This document shows, piece after piece, positions 43 to 4,984 of a stretch of 4,984 nucleotides of DNA; within the stretch, counting starts at the first letter, position 1, and each line of letters begins with the position of its first letter. The DNA lies in IMG/VR virus record IMGVR_UViG_2619619126_000013. The stretch is one strand, 5' to 3'. A program made the translations under genes and the position numbers. The stretch comes from a virus (Duplodnaviria > Heunggongvirae > Uroviricota > Caudoviricetes). Below the pieces are notes generated by a model, which was not told the DNA's origin, did not search any database, and saw only the letters and a program-made list of their open reading frames with translations.

Positions 43-1083
43 TTATTTAGACGCAAGCGCCGCCTCAATTACAGATAATCTTTGTCTTAATTCTGCGTTT
101 TCTTCTTCCAGTGCTGTTATTCTGTCGTCTGACTCTCTGGCTACCTGAACAAGCAAGCCAGTAACACCAGAATAATCTACTGTGTAATAACGTTCACCTT
201 CTTCACCTTCCGATCCGCTCGCACCGTCCTGATATTTCATTGCGGAACCTACAACTTCTGGGATTGCTTCCAGAGCTTCCTGTGCAATGACACCAGCATA
301 GGGCATACCGTTTTCTTTAAGCGTGTATGTATAGCCGTTCATTTTACGGATGCGGTCGGTTGCATTATCGATCACCTGAATGTTGTCTTTCAGATCCCGG
401 TCGGAATGCTGGTTAAATGCGGTGGCATGACATGCACCATTAACGCTTAACATATAGGTGTTATCGGTATTTTTCTGCGCATAGAACATATAAGCGCCAC
501 CATCAACACCGACTTCATAAACAACAGGACGGCTGGAATTTCCCCATAATAACGTCGACACACCAGAATACGCCGTACCTTGCGTGTTTAGTGTCATGGT
601 CGACCCGTGATTAGCATATTTGATCTGCAATGAGTCTGTATTATCAAACTTAATAAGCGCGTTACTTCCCCGCACACCATACGACATGAGACAGTTCCCC
701 ATCTTAAGGTAACCATCACTGCCTGGAAAAATTAAAGTTCCTCCGTAAAGATCACTAAAGTCCCAAAAGATACCTTTTGTCCCGTTATGTGTGACGATCC
801 TCGTCATTGTATCTTTAGTACCATCAATATTTTTTCTGGTATATATGTCACTATAAGCGTTTTCCGTTTCACCAGTCTTATTTGACAAATGCAGCTTACC
901 GCTGAATATAGTTCCAGTTGTTGGCAATGTTTTTTGATCATAGATTACATTGCAATAACCATTCCATGTTGTTTTATTGTCTACATAAGATTTTGTTGCG
1001 TAGCTTCCTTGATCGTTTTTTAATTTGCTAACGTCGGATTTTAGCGTTTTGATGTCATCAGGAATTACTGTCGATGTAGCCAT
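43..1083 (-). CDS. Tail fibre / tailspike-like protein with C-terminal intramolecular chaperone (peptidase S74-type, autoproteolytic) domain
   Basis: The 346-aa ORF has a strong ribosome-binding site (GAGGAAGAAAA then ATG). Its C-terminal roughly 120 aa carry the hallmark of the self-cleaving chaperone domain found on endosialidase-type tailspikes and the T5 L-shaped fibre: HSDRDLKDNI ... GYTYTLKENG ... GVIAQEALEAIPEVV ... YYTVDYSGVTGLL, then a coiled-coil tail (ITALEEENAELRQRLSVIEAALASK). The N-terminal roughly 225 aa are Gly/Thr/Asn/Tyr-rich, as expected for a beta-rich fibre tip. Sample blocks 841-900 and 961-1020 are 22/60 and 19/60 G+C. Confidence 0.85.
   Translation of the reverse strand: MATSTVIPDDIKTLKSDVSKLKNDQGSYATKSYVDNKTTWNGYCNVIYDQKTLPTTGTIFSGKLHLSNKTGETENAYSDIYTRKNIDGTKDTMTRIVTHNGTKGIFWDFSDLYGGTLIFPGSDGYLKMGNCLMSYGVRGSNALIKFDNTDSLQIKYANHGSTMTLNTQGTAYSGVSTLLWGNSSRPVVYEVGVDGGAYMFYAQKNTDNTYMLSVNGACHATAFNQHSDRDLKDNIQVIDNATDRIRKMNGYTYTLKENGMPYAGVIAQEALEAIPEVVGSAMKYQDGASGSEGEEGERYYTVDYSGVTGLLVQVARESDDRITALEEENAELRQRLSVIEAALASK
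46..405 (-). other. Intramolecular chaperone / autoproteolysis domain of the 346-aa fibre protein (predicted cleavage at Ser227)
   Basis: The Ser codon of the SDRDLKDNI motif maps to + coordinates 403-405 (gga, reverse complement TCC), checked codon by codon down to K232 at 388-390. The domain runs to the C-terminus. Cleavage is inferred from family knowledge, not observed. Confidence 0.7.
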
Positions 1084-1092
1084 TTTTCTTCC

Positions 1093-1374
1093 TCACATCC
1101 AGCCACGAAGTTGATGCTCAACAGCAACCACGTATTCATCGAATAATGACGATATTTGCGAATCATTAATGATGCGCACGTTTACAAAATATCCGTCTTC
1201 CTTAACACATACCGGTTCGCCATCTTCAGTCAGTTCTCCGGTTTCTTTGTACACGTTACCTATCACGTCGATAAGAATATCATCCTGCATCGACTCGTCA
1301 TCATAATAGCCAATACTCTCCATAAAGGCCGAAAAGTCGGCCCTGTCTTCAAATTTGAGTGTTAAATCTTTCAT
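1093..1374 (-). CDS. Hypothetical small, highly acidic protein (93 aa), translationally coupled to stf; candidate fibre assembly or accessory factor, function unknown
   Basis: Its ATG overlaps the stf stop (TAATG at 1372-1376). A GGGGGAG Shine-Dalgarno lies about 8 nt upstream. By hand count it has about 22 Asp+Glu against about 6 Lys+Arg in 93 residues. Its stop TGA (1093-1095) overlaps the GAGGAAG ribosome-binding site of the next gene. I recognise no family; it is too short and too acidic to be a lambda-type Tfa. Confidence 0.7.
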   Translation of the reverse strand: MKDLTLKFEDRADFSAFMESIGYYDDESMQDDILIDVIGNVYKETGELTEDGEPVCVKEDGYFVNVRIINDSQISSLFDEYVVAVEHQLRGWM

Positions 1375-3587
1375 TAGATTGACTCCCCCACCTGAGCATC
1401 AGTCAATGCCTTGTGCCATATTCTGAAATTCCTGACATGACCAAATAAATGACGTAACCCGGCTGTAGTCTGGCCTCCAATACGGATAATTGCGGTGTTC
1501 TGAATACAGGACCATGTGGTTTTTGTTTCGCTGGATATATGCCCGTTACTTACTGAGCACGTAGACTGCTCTGACTTTACACGCATCCCCATAACCATTT
1601 TTTCAAGCGATGCGTTTTCGTTTACCCGTCTGTTAGCTCCTCCAATATCGCAATAAGGAAATCCGTCGTAATCTGTTGAACGACCGAAGCCAAGAATAAT
1701 AGCCGCTCCGGTTTGATGACCGCCGGTATCAAAAACACGTGGCGCTGCATTTGGCGTTTTATACCAGTTCTTATGTACCTCACAAAGAACCGTAAAAGGA
1801 AGATTATAAAGATTATTCTTAATTGGAACTGTAACTATATCGCTTGCGCGGGTCGCCGCCGTCGCTCCTGATATAATAAAAGATGATACACAAGGCCCAT
1901 CTTCTACTTGTGGGGTGGCCAGATAAATATAGTCACCAGATACGGTTGCCCCGCTCTGCTTAGGAGAATACTGTATCTGAGAGCCTATTTTTAACTCCCC
2001 ATCAATTGCCTGAATTGTTGCCTCTGCAAAAATCCATCCGGTAGCTTCGTCCTTTCTGACTCTCGCTGTAATCCTTGAGGCAGCACCGCCTGTCATATTA
2101 ATTTCAAGCGTTTGTGTATCAATATACGCATCACCAAGAAAAGTTGTTGCGCTACCGTCATATTTATCAAACCGGATACGCAACCTTACCTGCAGTTCTG
2201 TTTTAAAACGACATGAGGTTGTCACGTGTTTATTATCGCCTGAGACATCAACTGACTTTGTTGCAGCAATTGATGCCATATTAATGGCTGAGGTTTGCCC
2301 AATCAGAGAATCGTTGCAGACAAACTTTCCATAGGTAAAACCAAAATTATCCGTCCCTGTTTCGGGCACATCCATATTTGACGATCGCCCCCAACTGGCA
2401 GGGCTTTCCGAATTGAGCATGTAGTTTGTTCTTTGCCCCTCAATAAGCAGGCCATCACGTTCAAATCGTGGCTCGTCAATGGCAGCCTCTGTCAGCACAC
2501 CAGATTTGTTAATATAGGTTGCTTTCGATGCACGTTTAAACTTAACAATCTTGTCGCCAGGCATCGTTATTTCATCGTCACCAATAACAATTTTTTTATA
2601 TGACGGCGAAAAGCCCGTAATCATATCCAGCGAATCGTTAAATGGTATCCACACATCAGGCAGCGGCTGTAAGACATATTTATACGGCTCCGCAGCCTGG
2701 CTTGCGTACTCTCTGGCTGCATCTTCGCTTGCTTTAGCTGCCGTCTGGCTTGCTGCCGATGCTTTCGCTGAGTTCGCAGCCGCTGTTTCGCTCACCTTTG
2801 CGTTGGTTTCACTGGTTTTTGCTGCTTTTTGACTGTTAGCTGATGCAGTGGCAGAAGCAGCCGCCGCGCTTGCAGAACTGGCTGCGGCACTCTCGCTTTG
2901 AGCCGCTGCATCCTGACTGCTTTTCGCCGCAGTTTCACTGGCTTTGGCATTCGTTTCGCTGGTCTTCGCTGCCGTCTGGCTGGACTTTGCGTTAGTTTCA
3001 CTCGTCTTCGCAGCTTTCTGGCTGTTAGCCGCAGCAGTTGCTGATCCAGCTGCTGAAGTCGCAGAACCGGCTGCCGCGCTCTCGCTTTGGGCTGCTGCAA
3101 CCTGGCTGTTTTTTGCCGCAGTTTCACTGGCTTTAGCATTCGTTTCGCTGGTTTTCGCCGCGTTCTTCGATGATGCCGCTGCAGTTTCGGATTTCTTTGC
3201 CGCCGCTGCGCTCTGAGAGGCGGCTTCAGCGTTGCGTGCCGCTTCTTCCACCATTTCCTCAAAACGACGCAATGCCTCCGGCATGACATCATCTTCCGTC
3301 ATGGCACCGAGAAAATCATTCAGCGTACCTGGTCTGGAACCTTCATAGACGGTAATGGTCCCGGCATGTGAAGGCGGAAAACCTTCAACCAGCAGGGTGA
3401 CGCTGTACTGGCCATACTCAACATCCATGCTGTAACGCCCGGCTTCATCCGGATTTTCAGAGGCCACCGTGTTCACCAGTACCGTGGTGCTGTTACGCTT
3501 TGCCTTCAGTTGAATAGTGCAGTTCTGTATTGGTTTTCCCGCACCATCTTTCAGCACACCTGAGATTTTTACTGCTGCCATATCCAC
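1374..3587 (-). CDS. stf: Side tail fibre protein (Stf-like): conserved N-terminal tail-attachment domain, Ala/Ser-rich heptad shaft, and a divergent C-terminal receptor-binding region ending in a LamG/ConA-like lectin domain
   Basis: The 737-aa ORF opens with MDMAAVKISGVLKDGAGKPIQNCTIQLKAKRNSTT, which matches the N-terminus of lambda Stf as I recall it (MAVKISGVLKDG...). Residues about 113-299 are an uninterrupted Ala/Ser/Thr heptad array. The C-terminal roughly 140 aa carry LamG-like signatures (PFTVLCEVHKNW ... RVFDTGG ... IIRIGGQ ... LFGHVRNFRIWHKALTDAQV). The track start at 3587 is GTG; the ATG at 3579-3581 with GGAG 6 nt upstream is the more likely true start. The stop TAA overlaps the next ORF's start (TAATG). 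Confidence 0.88.
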   Translation of the reverse strand: MDMAAVKISGVLKDGAGKPIQNCTIQLKAKRNSTTVLVNTVASENPDEAGRYSMDVEYGQYSVTLLVEGFPPSHAGTITVYEGSRPGTLNDFLGAMTEDDVMPEALRRFEEMVEEAARNAEAASQSAAAAKKSETAAASSKNAAKTSETNAKASETAAKNSQVAAAQSESAAAGSATSAAGSATAAANSQKAAKTSETNAKSSQTAAKTSETNAKASETAAKSSQDAAAQSESAAASSASAAAASATASANSQKAAKTSETNAKVSETAAANSAKASAASQTAAKASEDAAREYASQAAEPYKYVLQPLPDVWIPFNDSLDMITGFSPSYKKIVIGDDEITMPGDKIVKFKRASKATYINKSGVLTEAAIDEPRFERDGLLIEGQRTNYMLNSESPASWGRSSNMDVPETGTDNFGFTYGKFVCNDSLIGQTSAINMASIAATKSVDVSGDNKHVTTSCRFKTELQVRLRIRFDKYDGSATTFLGDAYIDTQTLEINMTGGAASRITARVRKDEATGWIFAEATIQAIDGELKIGSQIQYSPKQSGATVSGDYIYLATPQVEDGPCVSSFIISGATAATRASDIVTVPIKNNLYNLPFTVLCEVHKNWYKTPNAAPRVFDTGGHQTGAAIILGFGRSTDYDGFPYCDIGGANRRVNENASLEKMVMGMRVKSEQSTCSVSNGHISSETKTTWSCIQNTAIIRIGGQTTAGLRHLFGHVRNFRIWHKALTDAQVGESI
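2691..3251 (-). repeat. In-frame heptad-encoding repeat array (21-nt period) within stf, containing a 189-bp higher-order tandem duplication
   Basis: The protein reads as about 27 consecutive 7-residue units without stutter (for example TSETNAK / ASETAAK / NSQVAAA / QSESAAA). At DNA level there are near-identical direct copies offset by 189 nt: tttgcgttggtttca at 2797-2811 against tttgcgttagtttca at 2986-3000, and cgcagtttcactggctttggcattcgtttcgctgg at about 2928-2962 against the same motif at about 3117-3151. At protein level NSQKAAKTSETNAK occurs at residues 188-201 and 251-264. Confidence 0.85.
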
Positions 3588-3592
3588 TCCAC

Positions 3593-3619
3593 AAAAAAGC
3601 CCGCCTGAACCGGCGGGCT
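3593..3619 (-). terminator. Rho-independent terminator downstream of lom
   Basis: On the minus strand this reads AGCCCGCC-GGTTCA-GGCGGGCT (8-bp stem, + coordinates 3598-3605 pairing with 3612-3619) followed by TTTTTT (+ 3593-3598). It lies between the lom stop (3646) and the stf start. Confidence 0.7.
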
Positions 3620-3645
3620 GTCATAACACTGTGTTACCTGGCTAA

Positions 3646-4245
3646 TCAGAATTTATAACCGACACCCACGATGAAACCGTCAGTGCGCCAGTCACCACTG
3701 CCGGAGCCTTCATAAGCAATATCAATGGCCACGGATTCGGTCGGGTTAAACTGCACGCCAGCTCCCCACGCCAGAGACGTGTTGCTGTGGCGACCGTCAT
3801 CACTTCCGGTCAGCACATCGTGCGTTTTCCCCTTATTGTCAGTTACGCGGAGATAATCCCCGGAAAAAGTCGACACACGGCTGTAAGCCATACCCGCCAT
3901 CGCATACGCGCTGAACCATTCATTCACGCGCACAGACGGCCCCACCATCACGCTGAACCAGCGGTTACGCACGGAATCTTCATGCCAGCGGGTATTGCTG
4001 TAACGGGTAAGCTGGCGATTCTTGTCTCCTGCATAGCTGAATGACGTCACCAGCCCCAGTGTGTCCGTAAACTCATAACGGTATTTCACGTTAATCCCGT
4101 TAAGATCATCGCTGCCGGGAACGTTCGTCGAGGCATGAAGATACCCCGCGCTCAGCGTGGACTGATGTTCAGATGCCCATGCAGGCGCACCGGATACGGA
4201 CAGACAGATGGCTGCGGACAAAATGGCTGCACAAACTTTACGCAT
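3646..4245 (-). CDS. lom: Lom outer membrane protein (Ail/Lom/OmpX/PagC family 8-stranded beta-barrel), a lysogenic-conversion moron
   Basis: The 199-aa product has an N-terminal signal peptide ([24 protein letters not shown], then SEHQ), alternating beta-strand character and a C-terminal aromatic end (GVGYKF) typical of outer-membrane barrels. It is near-identical, by recollection, to lambda Lom. A GAGAGG Shine-Dalgarno lies 6 nt upstream of the ATG, and the gene sits immediately downstream of J. Confidence 0.92.
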
Positions 4246-4266
4246 AATTACCTCTCGCTTTTCTGC

Positions 4267-4294
4267 AATAAAAAAGGCGCCATTTCTGGCGCCC
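4267..4294 (-). terminator. Rho-independent terminator downstream of J (tJ-like)
   Basis: On the minus strand this reads GGCGCC-AGAAAT-GGCGCC (6-bp all-GC stem, 6-nt loop, + coordinates 4276-4293) followed immediately by TTTTTTATT (+ 4267-4275). It lies about 20 nt after the J stop and about 20 nt before the lom start. Confidence 0.6.
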
Positions 4295-4312
4295 GTATAT
4301 GGGTTATAAAAT

Positions 4313-4984
4313 TCAGCTGATACTGATGCCTGCGGTGGCTTTCTTCATCACCACAACCAGCAAATCGCTGATACTTGCTGTGGGATACCAGTCATTTACC
4401 AGCCATGCTGACACCGAAAACTCCAGCGTCATGTGACCGTGACCGGCAGGCATATCAATAACGCCACTGTAAATCAGCGTATTATCCAGCGCGGTACGGT
4501 TATAAATTTCAGCACCGTTTTTCCGCACTATCAGACGGCATGAGGAGTAAATATCAGTATGCTCTCTCTCATGTTTAGCGCCGCTGAATGCCACCGCCGG
4601 AATAACAATCTGCCGGTCAAACGGCTGATCGTCATAAACCCTGACGGTAATGGTCCCTGATGGCCACCGCTCCGGTGCACGGGAGTCCCGGGGGAAAGCT
4701 TTGCCCACTGTTTTAACGAGATCGCCTTCAATCTGGTTGGCGGACAGTTTTCCCAGAACCCGACAGTTTTCGTTAATCGTGACGTTGTTGAGCGTCCCGG
4801 AGTTCGCATTCACGTTACCGCTGATATCGGCATTTTTCGCCGTCAGCCGCCCGTCCGGTGTCAGGGAAAATGCCGGAGGATTACCGCCGCTGGTAATGGT
4901 GGGGGCCGTCAGGCGCTTCAGGAACACGTCGTTCATGAATATCTGGTTGCCCTGCGCCACAAACATCGGCGTTTCATTCCCGTT
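4313..4984 (-). CDS. J: Host specificity / central tail fibre protein J, C-terminal part only (5' end of the gene lies beyond the window)
   Basis: The frame stays open from 4966 to the window edge (codons upstream of the listed Met read N-G-N-E-T-P with no stop), so the gene is truncated by the window. The stop is TGA at 4313-4315. It sits directly upstream of lom with a hairpin terminator between, as in the lambda J-lom arrangement. The sample block 4801-4860 is 35/60 G+C by hand count. The family call rests on synteny and my recollection of gpJ, not on a search. Confidence 0.85.

Follow-up and report, generated by a model that had tools for sequence, protein, structure and literature searches.

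A three-gene fibre cassette shared with virulent siphoviruses stands in the distal stf position of a lambda-like Escherichia coli prophage

Judged by homology, the window (the whole 4,984-nucleotide stretch of DNA analysed here) comes from a lambda-like prophage of E. coli, of which it forms the J-lom-stf end. The initial gene calls, comprising the C-terminus of J, lom, a 737-residue stf, a 93-residue ORF (orf93) and a 346-residue ORF (orf346), were upheld, and all genes and features described below lie on the minus strand. The 3' part of J (4313-4984), encoding the C-terminal receptor-binding domain of the central tail fibre or tip attachment protein, matches Pfam Ig_GpJ_C (E = 1.9e-38) and Phage_Tail_Tip, presents 91% nucleotide identity to lambda J over 4984-4763 and has a G+C content of 53.3% with a GC3 of 0.62. 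The backbone gene lom (3646-4245; G+C 54.7%, GC3 0.60) encodes an Ail/Lom outer-membrane beta-barrel moron (Pfam Ail_Lom, E = 2.7e-120). Both J and lom are followed by terminator-like hairpins (4294-4275 and 3619-3598, respectively), and a terminator-like GC hairpin, GGGGCCGAGCGCCCC then GTTTTATTGG, which is a consensus match only, lies after the orf346 stop codon (22-36).

The 5' end of stf (3186-3587) encodes a lambda-type N-terminal anchor domain (Stf residues 1-134; Pfam phage_tail_N, PF08400, E = 6.5e-67 over residues 5-134, with a score over the curated cut-off), whose probable true start is the ATG at 3581. This region is 84% identical to lambda DNA over 3773-3229, the only part of the window besides 4984-4763 with a lambda DNA match; in protein sequence, lambda orf-401 shares 60% identity with Stf residues 5-299. 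The shaft (residues 135-305; 2673-3185) consists of Ala/Ser/Thr/Lys/Glu-rich repeats ending in ...AAEPYKYV. It contains a 189-nucleotide tandem duplication (2779-3156; TRF period 189, 1.9 copies, 82% match) with a sub-periodicity of 21 nucleotides, the spacings of repeat family D2 being multiples of 21. Residues 101-300 of Stf include 73 Ala and 36 Ser, and length differences between relatives fall in the shaft. Alignment to lambda thus confirmed the view of the first-pass annotation that a lambda-like N-terminus and shaft carry a non-lambda distal Stf.

The main junction is at the L306 codon (2670-2672), where the module motif LQPLPDVWIPFND begins; homology to Nonagvirus ESCO3 and Seuratvirus VogelGryff begins at nucleotide 2669 and the change point in base composition is at 2684. 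A breakpoint had been proposed near nucleotide 2690, after EPYKYV near residue 299. It does lie inside stf, but the module boundary at L306 is about 20 nucleotides away, and EPYKYV occupies residues 300-305 counting from the GTG start. The stf reading frame is unbroken across the junction. The motif start [LI]QPLPDVW is common to fibres with lambdoid, Queuovirinae, Drexlerviridae, T5-like and P2-like N-termini, and LQPLPDVWIPFND sits after five other, unrelated, N-terminal fibre scaffolds.

Downstream of the junction, the non-lambda 3' part of stf (residues 306-737; 1377-2672; G+C 44%) forms a module, termed the hub. Its nucleotide identity is 96% to ESCO3, 82% to VogelGryff, 81% to Warwickvirus tunus and 100% to the lambdoid phage Tritos, and tblastn found it in 219 phage records of lambdoid, Drexlerviridae, Dhillonvirus, Queuovirinae, T5-like and Vequintavirus phages. 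Residues 381-581 (1845-2447) match the gene transfer agent (GTA) head-spike-fibre family, a carbohydrate-binding-module-like beta-sandwich (NCBIfam NF048003, E = 2.9e-13; 50.7 bits, cut-off 36). An AF2 model of the hub reached pLDDT 77-94 only in this beta-sandwich (model residues 100-270, approximately Stf 395-565), and no confident AF2 model was obtained for the junction-proximal N-terminal part of the hub, its C-terminal part or orf93. Foldseek searches with the modelled beta-sandwich retrieved structures of the Pa193/E217 baseplate and tail-fibre complex, at E = 1e-4 and 8e-4, as well as CBM4/CBM16. At the hub C-terminus (residues 681-733; 1389-1547), a possible concanavalin-A-like lectin strand motif (...RNFRIWHKALTDAQV) is hinted at by Pfam Laminin_G_3 (E = 0.0015; 19.1 bits, under the 27.6 cut-off).

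The small acidic protein encoded by orf93 (1093-1374), whose ATG overlaps the stf stop codon, matches phrog_1361, of unknown function (E = 2.5e-46), and profile searches gave no match in Pfam or NCBIfam. Homologues lie directly 3' of the hub gene in all nine sampled loci, which cover five groups (lambdoid, Queuovirinae, Drexlerviridae, T5-like and Vequintavirus). Only 51 cluster representatives occur in 1.84 billion proteins; full-length matches are stand-alone proteins of ~85-150 residues, while two long proteins match over short repeated stretches only. By these homologies, the hub and orf93 move as a pair on at least six fibre scaffolds, namely lambdoid, Queuovirinae, Drexlerviridae, T5-like, P2-like and Vequintavirus.

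Three regions are distinguished in orf346. Residues 1-32 (988-1083) comprise a conserved peptide, MATSTVIPDDIKTLKSDVSKLKND..., which is a candidate docking segment on account of its conservation, its DNA being 100% identical to Tritos and 97% to ESCO3. The pattern M.T.TVIP.DIT.LK opens the third gene in lambdoid, Queuovirinae, Drexlerviridae and T5-like loci, and the remainder of the protein diverges. The central region (residues 33-181; 541-987), a putative receptor-binding domain marked by a drop in identity, holds the G+C minimum of the window; it is 40-77% identical to Tritos and ESCO3, in contrast to flanks of ~100% and 97%, respectively, and its closest match is in Nonagvirus JenP1 (93.6%). 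At least four alleles of this centre occur behind the same hub and orf93 among 80 viral contigs. Residues 227-346 (46-405) form a C-terminal intramolecular chaperone domain (Peptidase_S74; PF13884 over residues 227-278, E = 6.3e-14, 52.4 bits, cut-off 22) that is predicted to cleave itself off at S227 (codon 403-405). ESCO3, VogelGryff, tunus and a T5-like contig likewise carry the S227-DRDL-K232 motif in their third genes, and PHROG profiles align orf346 with C-terminal parts of tail-fibre proteins. Taken on these sequence features, orf346 would be the gene of a receptor-binding fibre, exchangeable separately from the hub and orf93. The first-pass annotation had described the distal Stf, the 93-residue ORF and the 346-residue ORF as one receptor-recognition module; within it, the distal Stf is probably not the sole recognition element, and the variable binder would be the 346-residue protein.

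The G+C content is 42.9% over 43-2690 and 53.9% over 2691-4984. The six hand-counted 60-nucleotide blocks on which a drop inside stf had been proposed were all exact on recount (35, 36, 25, 23, 22 and 19), and sliding G+C and the change point locate the drop there. The best single change point by maximum likelihood is nucleotide 2684, with a log-likelihood ratio (LLR) of 30.5, where 200 shuffles averaged 2.6 and did not exceed 9.2, and the 300-nucleotide profile passes from 0.43-0.47 to 0.54-0.57 across 2500-2700. GC3 is 0.388 in 871 cassette codons versus 0.557 in 727 backbone codons (z = 6.75) and, inside stf only, shows a modest contrast of 0.384 (distal) versus 0.485 (proximal; z = 2.73), so that synonymous sites genuinely share in the drop. 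The step near 2690 is partly sharpened by the Ala/Ser-rich shaft, where a second-position GC of 0.69 is an amino-acid effect. A second minimum, of 35%, lies at 700-1100 in the N-terminal part of orf346.

By DNA homology the backbone is lambda-like and the cassette virulent siphovirus-like, in agreement with the separate origin first suggested for the two sides. The suggestion of a lower-GC phage as the type of source is also supported, the genomes around the cassette in ESCO3, tunus and VogelGryff having a G+C content of 42-44%, equal to that of the cassette, against 52% for lambda distal stf and 49% for tfa. The ESCO3 match spans 2669-107 with the same order of distal fibre, 93-residue and ~350-residue genes at 89-96% nucleotide identity; VogelGryff matches over 2669-1351 and tunus over 2711-1012. 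Sliding identity in 60-nucleotide windows revealed a patchwork, at odds with the acquisition of the three genes together as one block. Seuratvirus is the best match over 2671-2402 (98-100%), Warwickvirus matches as well over 2461-2072 (97-100%), ESCO3 matches over 2521-1000 (97-100%), and no match was found over 985-540 in Seuratvirus, Warwickvirus or ESCO3. Exact runs of 179, 152 and 87 nucleotides occur among the matches.

As many as 196 complete E. coli genomes carry the entire window in collinear form, as do the isolated phages Tritos, 2G7b, PhiR63_1 and HannyBb. Collinear homologues had been named as a sign against horizontal exchange. This was too strict a reading, since these are copies of the same recombinant: Tritos and E. 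coli 300444 share a 100% identical cassette, yet their J C-terminal segments have diverged (87% and 91% identity, respectively) and lom is 90% identical in 300444 and absent from Tritos. Conversely, PhiR55_1 presents 97% identity in J and 99% in the stf N-terminal domain but carries another hub allele at 66%. On the right, the replaced segment ends beyond the window, at a point seen in relatives only. In the sister prophage of E. coli 300444, a 39-codon 3' remnant of a lambda-type tfa, 90% identical to lambda, lies downstream of the cassette, and a lambda-type stf-tfa was therefore present first.

We consider it very likely that the original distal stf and tfa were replaced by a three-gene receptor-recognition cassette circulating among many coliphage lineages, through nested recombination that yielded a two-part fibre. 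Homologous recombination would have occurred at short conserved linkers, namely LQPLPDVWIPFND at the hub start, the beginning of the third gene (~32 codons) and the chaperone domain, when virulent siphoviruses of ~43% G+C (Queuovirinae and Drexlerviridae types) met lambdoid prophages in co-infected cells. Such recombination, repeated and recent, would account for a nested patchwork instead of a single insertion. As the cassette is very common in E. coli prophages, virulent phages could instead have been the recipients of segments from prophages. A cassette native to lambdoid prophages and taken by virulent phages, or else a free two-way pool in which low G+C is a property of the pool and not of a donor genome, is an unlikely account overall, although several observations favour it. 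Besides the 196 genomes bearing the window, orf93 variants are each found on 380-700 contigs. Diverged hub alleles reside on lambdoid backbones (PhiR55_1, 66%; Lambda_2E9, 45%) and hub G+C partly follows the phage genome in which it resides (39.9% in T5-like IrisVonRoten, 47.3% in Vequintavirus ime), so that long residence in several lineages is indicated. Against this, the cassette G+C of 43% equals the siphovirus ambient value and is 11 points under the lambdoid backbone, the tfa remnant places lambda-type stf-tfa earlier, and most hub-bearing lineages are virulent.

That the G+C step is a by-product of protein composition, an Ala/Ser shaft beside a globular domain with no horizontal replacement, is highly improbable. 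The second-position GC of the shaft and a shaft GC3 (0.46) only moderately over that of the hub (0.38-0.39) would fit it, but GC3 in J and lom is far over the cassette value of 0.39, lambda distal stf and tfa hold 49-52% G+C, and the match of the two sides to different phage families refutes it. An assembly chimera or source artefact, in favour of which nothing was found, is refuted by the intact frame and by collinearity in complete genomes and isolated phages, and its probability is negligible.

The window shares with the lambda stf-tfa locus (Ur-lambda) the site behind J and lom, the PF08400 domain and the Ala-rich shaft type. It differs in a distal Stf that is not similar to orf-314 and in the absence of tfa, in whose place, together with distal stf, stand the hub, orf93 and a self-chaperoning second fibre. 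The lateral fibre loci of Queuovirinae and Drexlerviridae (ESCO3, JenP1, VogelGryff/Bas25 and tunus), virulent phages with genomes unrelated to the window, display the same three-gene order (a fibre with the hub, a ~92-residue ORF and a third gene with the S-x4-K chaperone motif) at 77-96% nucleotide identity overall and 97-100% in stretches. The fibre N-termini of the Queuovirinae match the window at no more than protein level, and that of tunus does not match it at all. For the VogelGryff third gene, the BASEL annotation goes no further than "putative lateral tail fiber chaperone" (PMC8594841). In IrisVonRoten, Gp22 was described as a proximal fibre whose C-terminal domain is galectin-like and bears Gp24, a T-shaped receptor-binding protein with a chaperone, the two being joined in an AlphaFold-Multimer model (PMC11990801). 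Identity between the hub and the C-terminal part of Gp22 is 63%, Gp23 is a homologue of orf93, and Gp24 opens with MVTKTVIPTDITKLK, the same motif as in orf346, and ends with the chaperone domain. Gp24 comprises 574 residues against 346 in orf346, and the scaffold in the window is lambda-type, in a temperate phage; no dual (Gp12-like plus T5-like) receptor-binding arrangement came to light in the general domain and homology analysis. The branched LtfA/LtfB fibres of DT57C (PMC10713586) are, by description, a related idea to a hub-borne second fibre. The Rhodobacter GTA head fibre binds capsular polysaccharide (PMC7296036). Its protein Rcc01080 is homologous to Stf residues ~350-596 (PDB 6tb9, E = 1e-7), with NF048003 over its cut-off, but sits at the capsid vertices as a single chain and does not belong to a trimeric tail fibre; there is no solved Rcc01080 fold to compare because 6tb9 resolves residues 2-10 only (PMC7296036). 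The intramolecular chaperones of endosialidase and T5 pb1 share PF13884 and the S-x4-K motif (S227, K232) at the domain start, although the predicted mature part of orf346, of 226 residues, is very short by the standards of tailspikes or T5 pb1.

From homology and conservation we infer docking of orf346, glycan binding and self-cleavage as follows. The lambda-type N-terminal domain would hold the trimeric fibre at the tail tip and the Ala-rich repeats would form its shaft. Residues 306-737 of Stf would constitute a lectin-like hub whose CBM-like beta-sandwich, related to the capsule-binding GTA fibre, may bind glycans. The 346-residue protein would be a short second fibre, folded by its own C-terminal chaperone and cut at S227, which may dock its N-terminal peptide on the hub and display the variable receptor-binding region, while orf93, in the genomic place of Tfa, may be a hub-linked assembly factor or adaptor. 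Recently emerged mosaicism across phage lifestyles or families was found in tail fibres and tail spikes only (PMC10684548). Module swapping and fibres built in this way have both been described before, and the present locus is a clean but ordinary host-range module swap, in which the distal Stf is probably a lectin-like hub for docking of the variable 346-residue binder. The likely targets would be surface glycans (O-antigen or LPS core), serving as a first, reversible receptor before J binds the terminal receptor.

The C-terminus of J, lom and stf follow one another in that order on the minus strand, an arrangement shared with lambda, PhiR55_1 and E. coli 300444. Of these genes, J (3' end, 4313-4984) carries Ig_GpJ_C (E=1.9e-38), lom (3646-4245) carries Ail_Lom (E=2.7e-120), and stf (1374-3587, 737 aa) carries at aa 5-134 the prophage tail fibre N-terminal domain (phage_tail_N, PF08400; E=6.5e-67, 224 bits against a cut-off of 26.6). 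On the same strand lie orf93 (1093-1374, 93 aa), the start of which overlaps the stf stop, and orf346 (43-1083, 346 aa), aa 227-278 of which match the Peptidase_S74 intramolecular chaperone domain (PF13884; 52.4 bits against a cut-off of 22). The ORF listing places the stf start at GTG 3587 (MDMAAVK...); ATG 3581 gives MAAVKISG..., in agreement with the starts of homologues, and the real Stf is probably 735 aa long with its start at this ATG. Plus-strand ORFs of 69, 52, 56 and 93 aa within the lower-GC part of the window were rejected as genes, being antisense to well-supported genes and, in one case, lying in an Ala-repeat region.

Terminator-like hairpins are located 3' of J, lom and orf346. 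The gap between lom and stf holds a strong one (3598-3619, minus strand; 8-bp stem with 7 GC pairs, T-run). The late transcript of lambda is under Q-type antitermination; given the hairpin ahead of stf, transcription of stf and the genes downstream presumably depends on such antitermination as well. A promoter scan of the window gave an uninformative yield of 5 sites against 6.9 expected, and Rfam identified no RNA families in it. In phage Tritos (locus L001, 4884-4945) lom is missing between J and stf, and stf with the genes that follow it is 98-100% identical to the window; lom appears to act as an independent moron. Just past the left edge of the window, relatives encode a 97-residue predicted membrane protein of 53% GC (E. 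coli 300444 locus L089, 11153-11585, a range that includes a tfa remnant; L001, 8691-8984; the further relative L088, 9719-10012), which could be another moron, for example a superinfection-exclusion gene.

The first-pass annotation had read a fall in GC inside stf as the edge of a horizontally swapped host-range cassette. All six of its hand-counted 60-nt G+C blocks were exact on recount, and the drop is real, with 42.9% GC at 43-2690 against 53.9% at 2691-4984. The sliding 300-nt profile steps between 2500 and 2700 and reaches a second minimum, of 35%, at 700-1100. The single maximum-likelihood change point falls at nt 2684 with an LLR of 30.5 (200 shuffles: mean 2.6, maximum 9.2), a compositional discontinuity that exceeds chance. 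Synonymous positions show the drop as well: the three reading frames of the cassette have a GC3 of 0.388, against 0.557 for J, lom and the proximal part of stf (z = 6.75), and within stf itself the values are 0.384 distally and 0.485 proximally (z = 2.73). The shaft on the proximal side of the junction is built of Ala/Ser-rich repeats with a second-position GC of 0.69, so the step looks sharper than it is; a pure effect of amino-acid composition was considered and rejected.

Separate searches of the two parts, as had been proposed, placed their closest relatives in different phage lineages. By megablast, the high-GC part matches only lambdoid and Stx phages, and the low-GC part matches a few lambdoid phages (Tritos, PhiR63_1, HannyBb, 2G7b) together with virulent siphoviruses of other families. 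In pairwise BLASTN, lambda aligns with 4984-4763 and 3773-3229 (91% and 84% identity) and has no match below nt 3229, while Nonagvirus ESCO3 aligns with 2669-107 (89%), Seuratvirus VogelGryff with 2669-1351 (81%) and Warwickvirus tunus with 2711-1012 (77.5%). At the protein level, lambda orf-401 aligns with residues 5-299 of Stf only (BLASTP). Neither lambda orf-314 nor lambda Tfa aligns anywhere in the window; Stf shows no BLASTP similarity to orf-314, a lambda-like distal receptor-binding part being absent, and no tfa is found in the window, orf93 and orf346 having no similarity to lambda Tfa. The window shares with lambda Stf the PF08400 anchor and the position after J and lom, but has neither an orf-314-like distal part nor a downstream tfa.

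The first residue of the module is L306 (nt 2672), which opens the motif LQPLPDVWIPFND and lies within about 20 nt of the breakpoint earlier placed near nt 2690. A [LI]QPLPDVW motif begins the hub, the distal part of Stf (aa 306-737), in every locus examined but that of Vequintavirus ime, in which none was detected. The N-terminal scaffold ahead of the motif ends in ...AAEPYKYV in lambdoid phages, in ...EAAAN.xP[DE] in Queuovirinae and T5-like phages, and in ...LEDARKI in a P2-type myovirus fibre with Phage_fiber_2 repeats. By tblastn, the hub occurs in 219 phage records, comprising lambdoid phages, Drexlerviridae, Dhillonvirus, Queuovirinae, T5-like Demerecviridae and Vequintavirus. Sequence of the coliphage hub or tail-fibre type, 45-80% identical to the window's own hub, also turned up in records named 'Campylobacter phage C13/C11/C14/A116/C2' (MG065692, MG065652, MG065653, MG065676, MG065655) and 'Listeria phage LM ...' (OR849447, OR848352, OR847733); the lengths of these records fit T5-like, rV5-like or fragmentary contigs, and they are probably mislabelled or contaminated entries.

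Among lambdoid relatives, the histories of the backbone and of the cassette are discordant. Tritos has a hub 100% identical to that of the window, a J C-terminal segment of 87% identity and no lom. E. coli 300444, a sister prophage, is 100% identical in stf and the cassette, in an exact run of 3158 nt, but only 91% in J and 90% in lom. PhiR55_1 is close in J (97%) and in the Stf N-terminal domain (99%), but its hub is another allele (66%) and its orf93 homologue reaches only 33% identity. In E. coli 300444 the cassette is followed by the 97-residue membrane protein and then by a 39-codon 3' remnant of tfa with 90% nucleotide identity to lambda; this remnant of the replaced genes at the far end is known from the relative and lies outside the window. 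In GC the cassette (43%) equals its genomic surroundings in ESCO3 (44%), tunus (44%) and VogelGryff (42%), against 52% for lambda distal stf and 49% for lambda tfa. On these comparisons, distal stf and the genes downstream appear to be a horizontally replaced module, as the original reading of the GC drop had it, and that reading was well made. In 196 complete E. coli genomes the window is collinear from end to end, which rules out a chimeric or artefactual assembly and does not contradict an earlier recombination.

The shaft contains at 2779-3156 (minus strand) a 189-nt (63-residue) tandem duplication, 80-82% identical, with 21/42-nt sub-repeats. Differences in Stf length among relatives (737 against 785-791 aa) and many megablast hit ends (nt 2796 and 3158-3161) map to these repeats, which suggests that the shaft changes length by repeat slippage or unequal recombination.

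The distal fibre domain, orf93 and orf346 had been proposed to have been acquired together. Sliding 60-nt identity and the third-gene alleles speak against one block, and retain the hub with orf93 as one unit and the centre of orf346 as another. By sliding identity, the best match is VogelGryff at 2671-2402 (98-100%), tunus at 2461-2072 (97-100%) and ESCO3 at 2521-1000 and 407-137 (97-100%), with exact shared runs of 179 nt for ESCO3, 152 nt for VogelGryff, 143 nt for Nonagvirus JenP1 and 87 nt for tunus. At 985-540, encoding orf346 aa 33-181, identity to Tritos and ESCO3 is only 40-77%, with Tritos 100% identical to the window elsewhere in this comparison. The variable region of orf346 (541-987) is 93.6% identical to JenP1, coincides with the lowest GC of the window and represents a distinct allele relative to otherwise identical prophages. 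At least four third-gene alleles follow a near-identical orf93 among 80 IMG/VR loci, and all start MATSTVIP.DI..LK.

Within the hub, Stf aa 381-581 score 50.7 bits (cut-off 36) with NCBIfam NF048003, the GTA head spike fibre domain, and the hub matches the RcGTA head fibre Rcc01080 (PDB 6tb9; E=1e-7), which mediates attachment to capsular polysaccharide (PMC7296036). The AlphaFold2 model of Stf 296-737 has a mean pLDDT of 50 and is confident only for the central β-sandwich, the NF048003 region, and not for the 97 junction-proximal and the last 170 residues. The best Foldseek matches of the β-sandwich in the PDB are baseplate and tail-fibre complexes of the Pseudomonas phages Pa193/E217 and CBM4/CBM16, with weak scores (E=1e-4 to 1e-3; low TM from length normalisation) that inform on the central domain only. 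From the RcGTA homology and the CBM-like β-sandwich of the model, we infer that the hub may bind polysaccharide. The extreme C-terminus of Stf, modelled without confidence, gives a sub-threshold match to the last 53 profile positions of Laminin_G_3, a concanavalin-A-like lectin family (PF13385; 19.1 bits against 27.6). Among the matches listed, two large homology searches returned only near-identical E. coli proteins, and the alignments are shallow. The hub is 96% identical to ESCO3 at the nucleotide level and 63% identical at the protein level to the C-terminal part of Gp22 of the T5-like IrisVonRoten. Gp22 has been described as a proximal fibre from which a galectin-like domain protrudes and to which Gp24, a receptor-binding protein that bears a chaperone, is attached (PMC11990801).

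The product of orf93 matches phrog_1361 (E=2.5e-46), a family of ~92-residue ORFs directly after the hub gene. Homologues, including IrisVonRoten Gp23, occupy that position in nine diverse loci and follow the hub gene in every annotated locus examined for orf93, and those among the matches listed are all named 'hypothetical protein'. In Vequintavirus ime (locus L092, 824-5263) a 1479-residue myovirus fibre ending in the hub is followed by a 110-residue orf93 homologue (5263-5595) and a terminator-like hairpin. No third gene with the TVIP-type N-terminus of orf346 follows it there; orf93 therefore goes with the hub and not with the third gene. Pfam and NCBIfam identified no domains in orf93, and its AlphaFold2 model (24 close homologues; mean pLDDT 49) is of too low confidence for a fold search. 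Full-length matches in an exhaustive search of 1.84 billion representatives are stand-alone proteins (51 clusters) with no informative fusion among them, two long hits matching short repeated stretches only.

The orf346 protein starts with MATSTVIPDDIKTLK, a TVIP.DIT.LK-type N-terminus, and IrisVonRoten Gp24 with MVTKTVIPTDITKLK; the combination of a TVIP-type N-terminus and a C-terminal chaperone recurs in the third genes of ESCO3, JenP1, tunus, VogelGryff, PhiR55_1, IrisVonRoten and a T5-like contig. Pfam detected nothing in aa 1-227, even at E up to 10. The S74 domain of orf346 opens with S227-D-R-D-L-K232. We take the Ser and Lys five residues apart to be the catalytic dyad and self-cleavage site, as in endosialidase (endoNF) and T5 pb1, and self-cleavage would leave a mature product of ~226 residues. 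Docking of orf346 on the hub is suggested by the conserved N-terminal peptide and by the published AF-Multimer model of a homologue (PMC11990801).

Together, the domain identities outline a fibre in which a lambda-type anchor and shaft would bear a lectin-like hub, orf93 would assist or join the hub, and a short orf346 fibre would dock through its conserved N-terminus and display a variable receptor-binding region; docking, glycan binding and cleavage are the conjectural elements of this scheme. As a tentative extension, which we hold possible rather than probable, orf93 could be a dedicated hub partner from a new small family of assembly or adaptor proteins in place of Tfa-type chaperones, folding the lectin-like hub or bridging it to the TVIP-motif N-terminus of interchangeable fibres; hub, orf93 and docking peptide might then form a universal plug-and-socket by which temperate lambdoid phages could exchange receptor binders with virulent coliphages in near-real time.

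The cassette most likely arose when prophages and virulent phages infecting the same host recombined by homology within the conserved linkers; for the Rad52-type recombinases of lambdoid phages, relaxed homology is known to suffice for recombining stf regions (PMC3945230). Traffic in both directions between prophages and virulent phages would fit a cassette that is very common in prophages and a hub whose GC partly follows each resident genome. Given a real replacement, import from the virulent pool of ~43% GC is nevertheless the direction we consider rather probable, because the cassette matches that pool in GC and because of the tfa scar.

Modular exchange of tail fibres and this fibre architecture have already been described, and the locus, well-resolved here, adds detail and not a new concept. 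It shares a hub-ending fibre, a phrog_1361 ORF and a third gene with TVIP motif and chaperone with the two-part fibres of IrisVonRoten (Gp22/23/24) and the lateral tail fibre loci of Queuovirinae and Drexlerviridae. In Drexlerviridae, Dhillonvirus and Queuovirinae, the lateral fibre loci were reported to diverge immediately beyond the extreme 5' end of their first gene (BASEL-1, PMC8594841), and branched two-protein fibres are present in DT57C (PMC10713586). Smug et al. found recent cross-lifestyle mosaicism in tail fibres and spikes only (PMC10684548), and a survey of phage-prophage recombination reports nothing on this locus (PMC11069274). With 96-100% identical segments common to both lifestyles, the present locus contradicts the statement of a 2014 survey that E. 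coli phages hold no recent temperate-virulent mosaics (PMC3945230), a statement already softened by later work.

The junction is mapped to one codon, and the conserved linkers mark where receptor-binding parts can be swapped, which is of use where lambda-based delivery particles are to be given new host ranges. For the phages themselves, the locus would determine the E. coli surface glycans that a widespread lambdoid prophage binds first, and the almost identical segments found also in Nonagvirus, Seuratvirus and Warwickvirus, groups on which the BASEL and phage-therapy literature draws, show that prophages and virulent phages still exchange genes at fibre loci today and did not do so only in the distant past.
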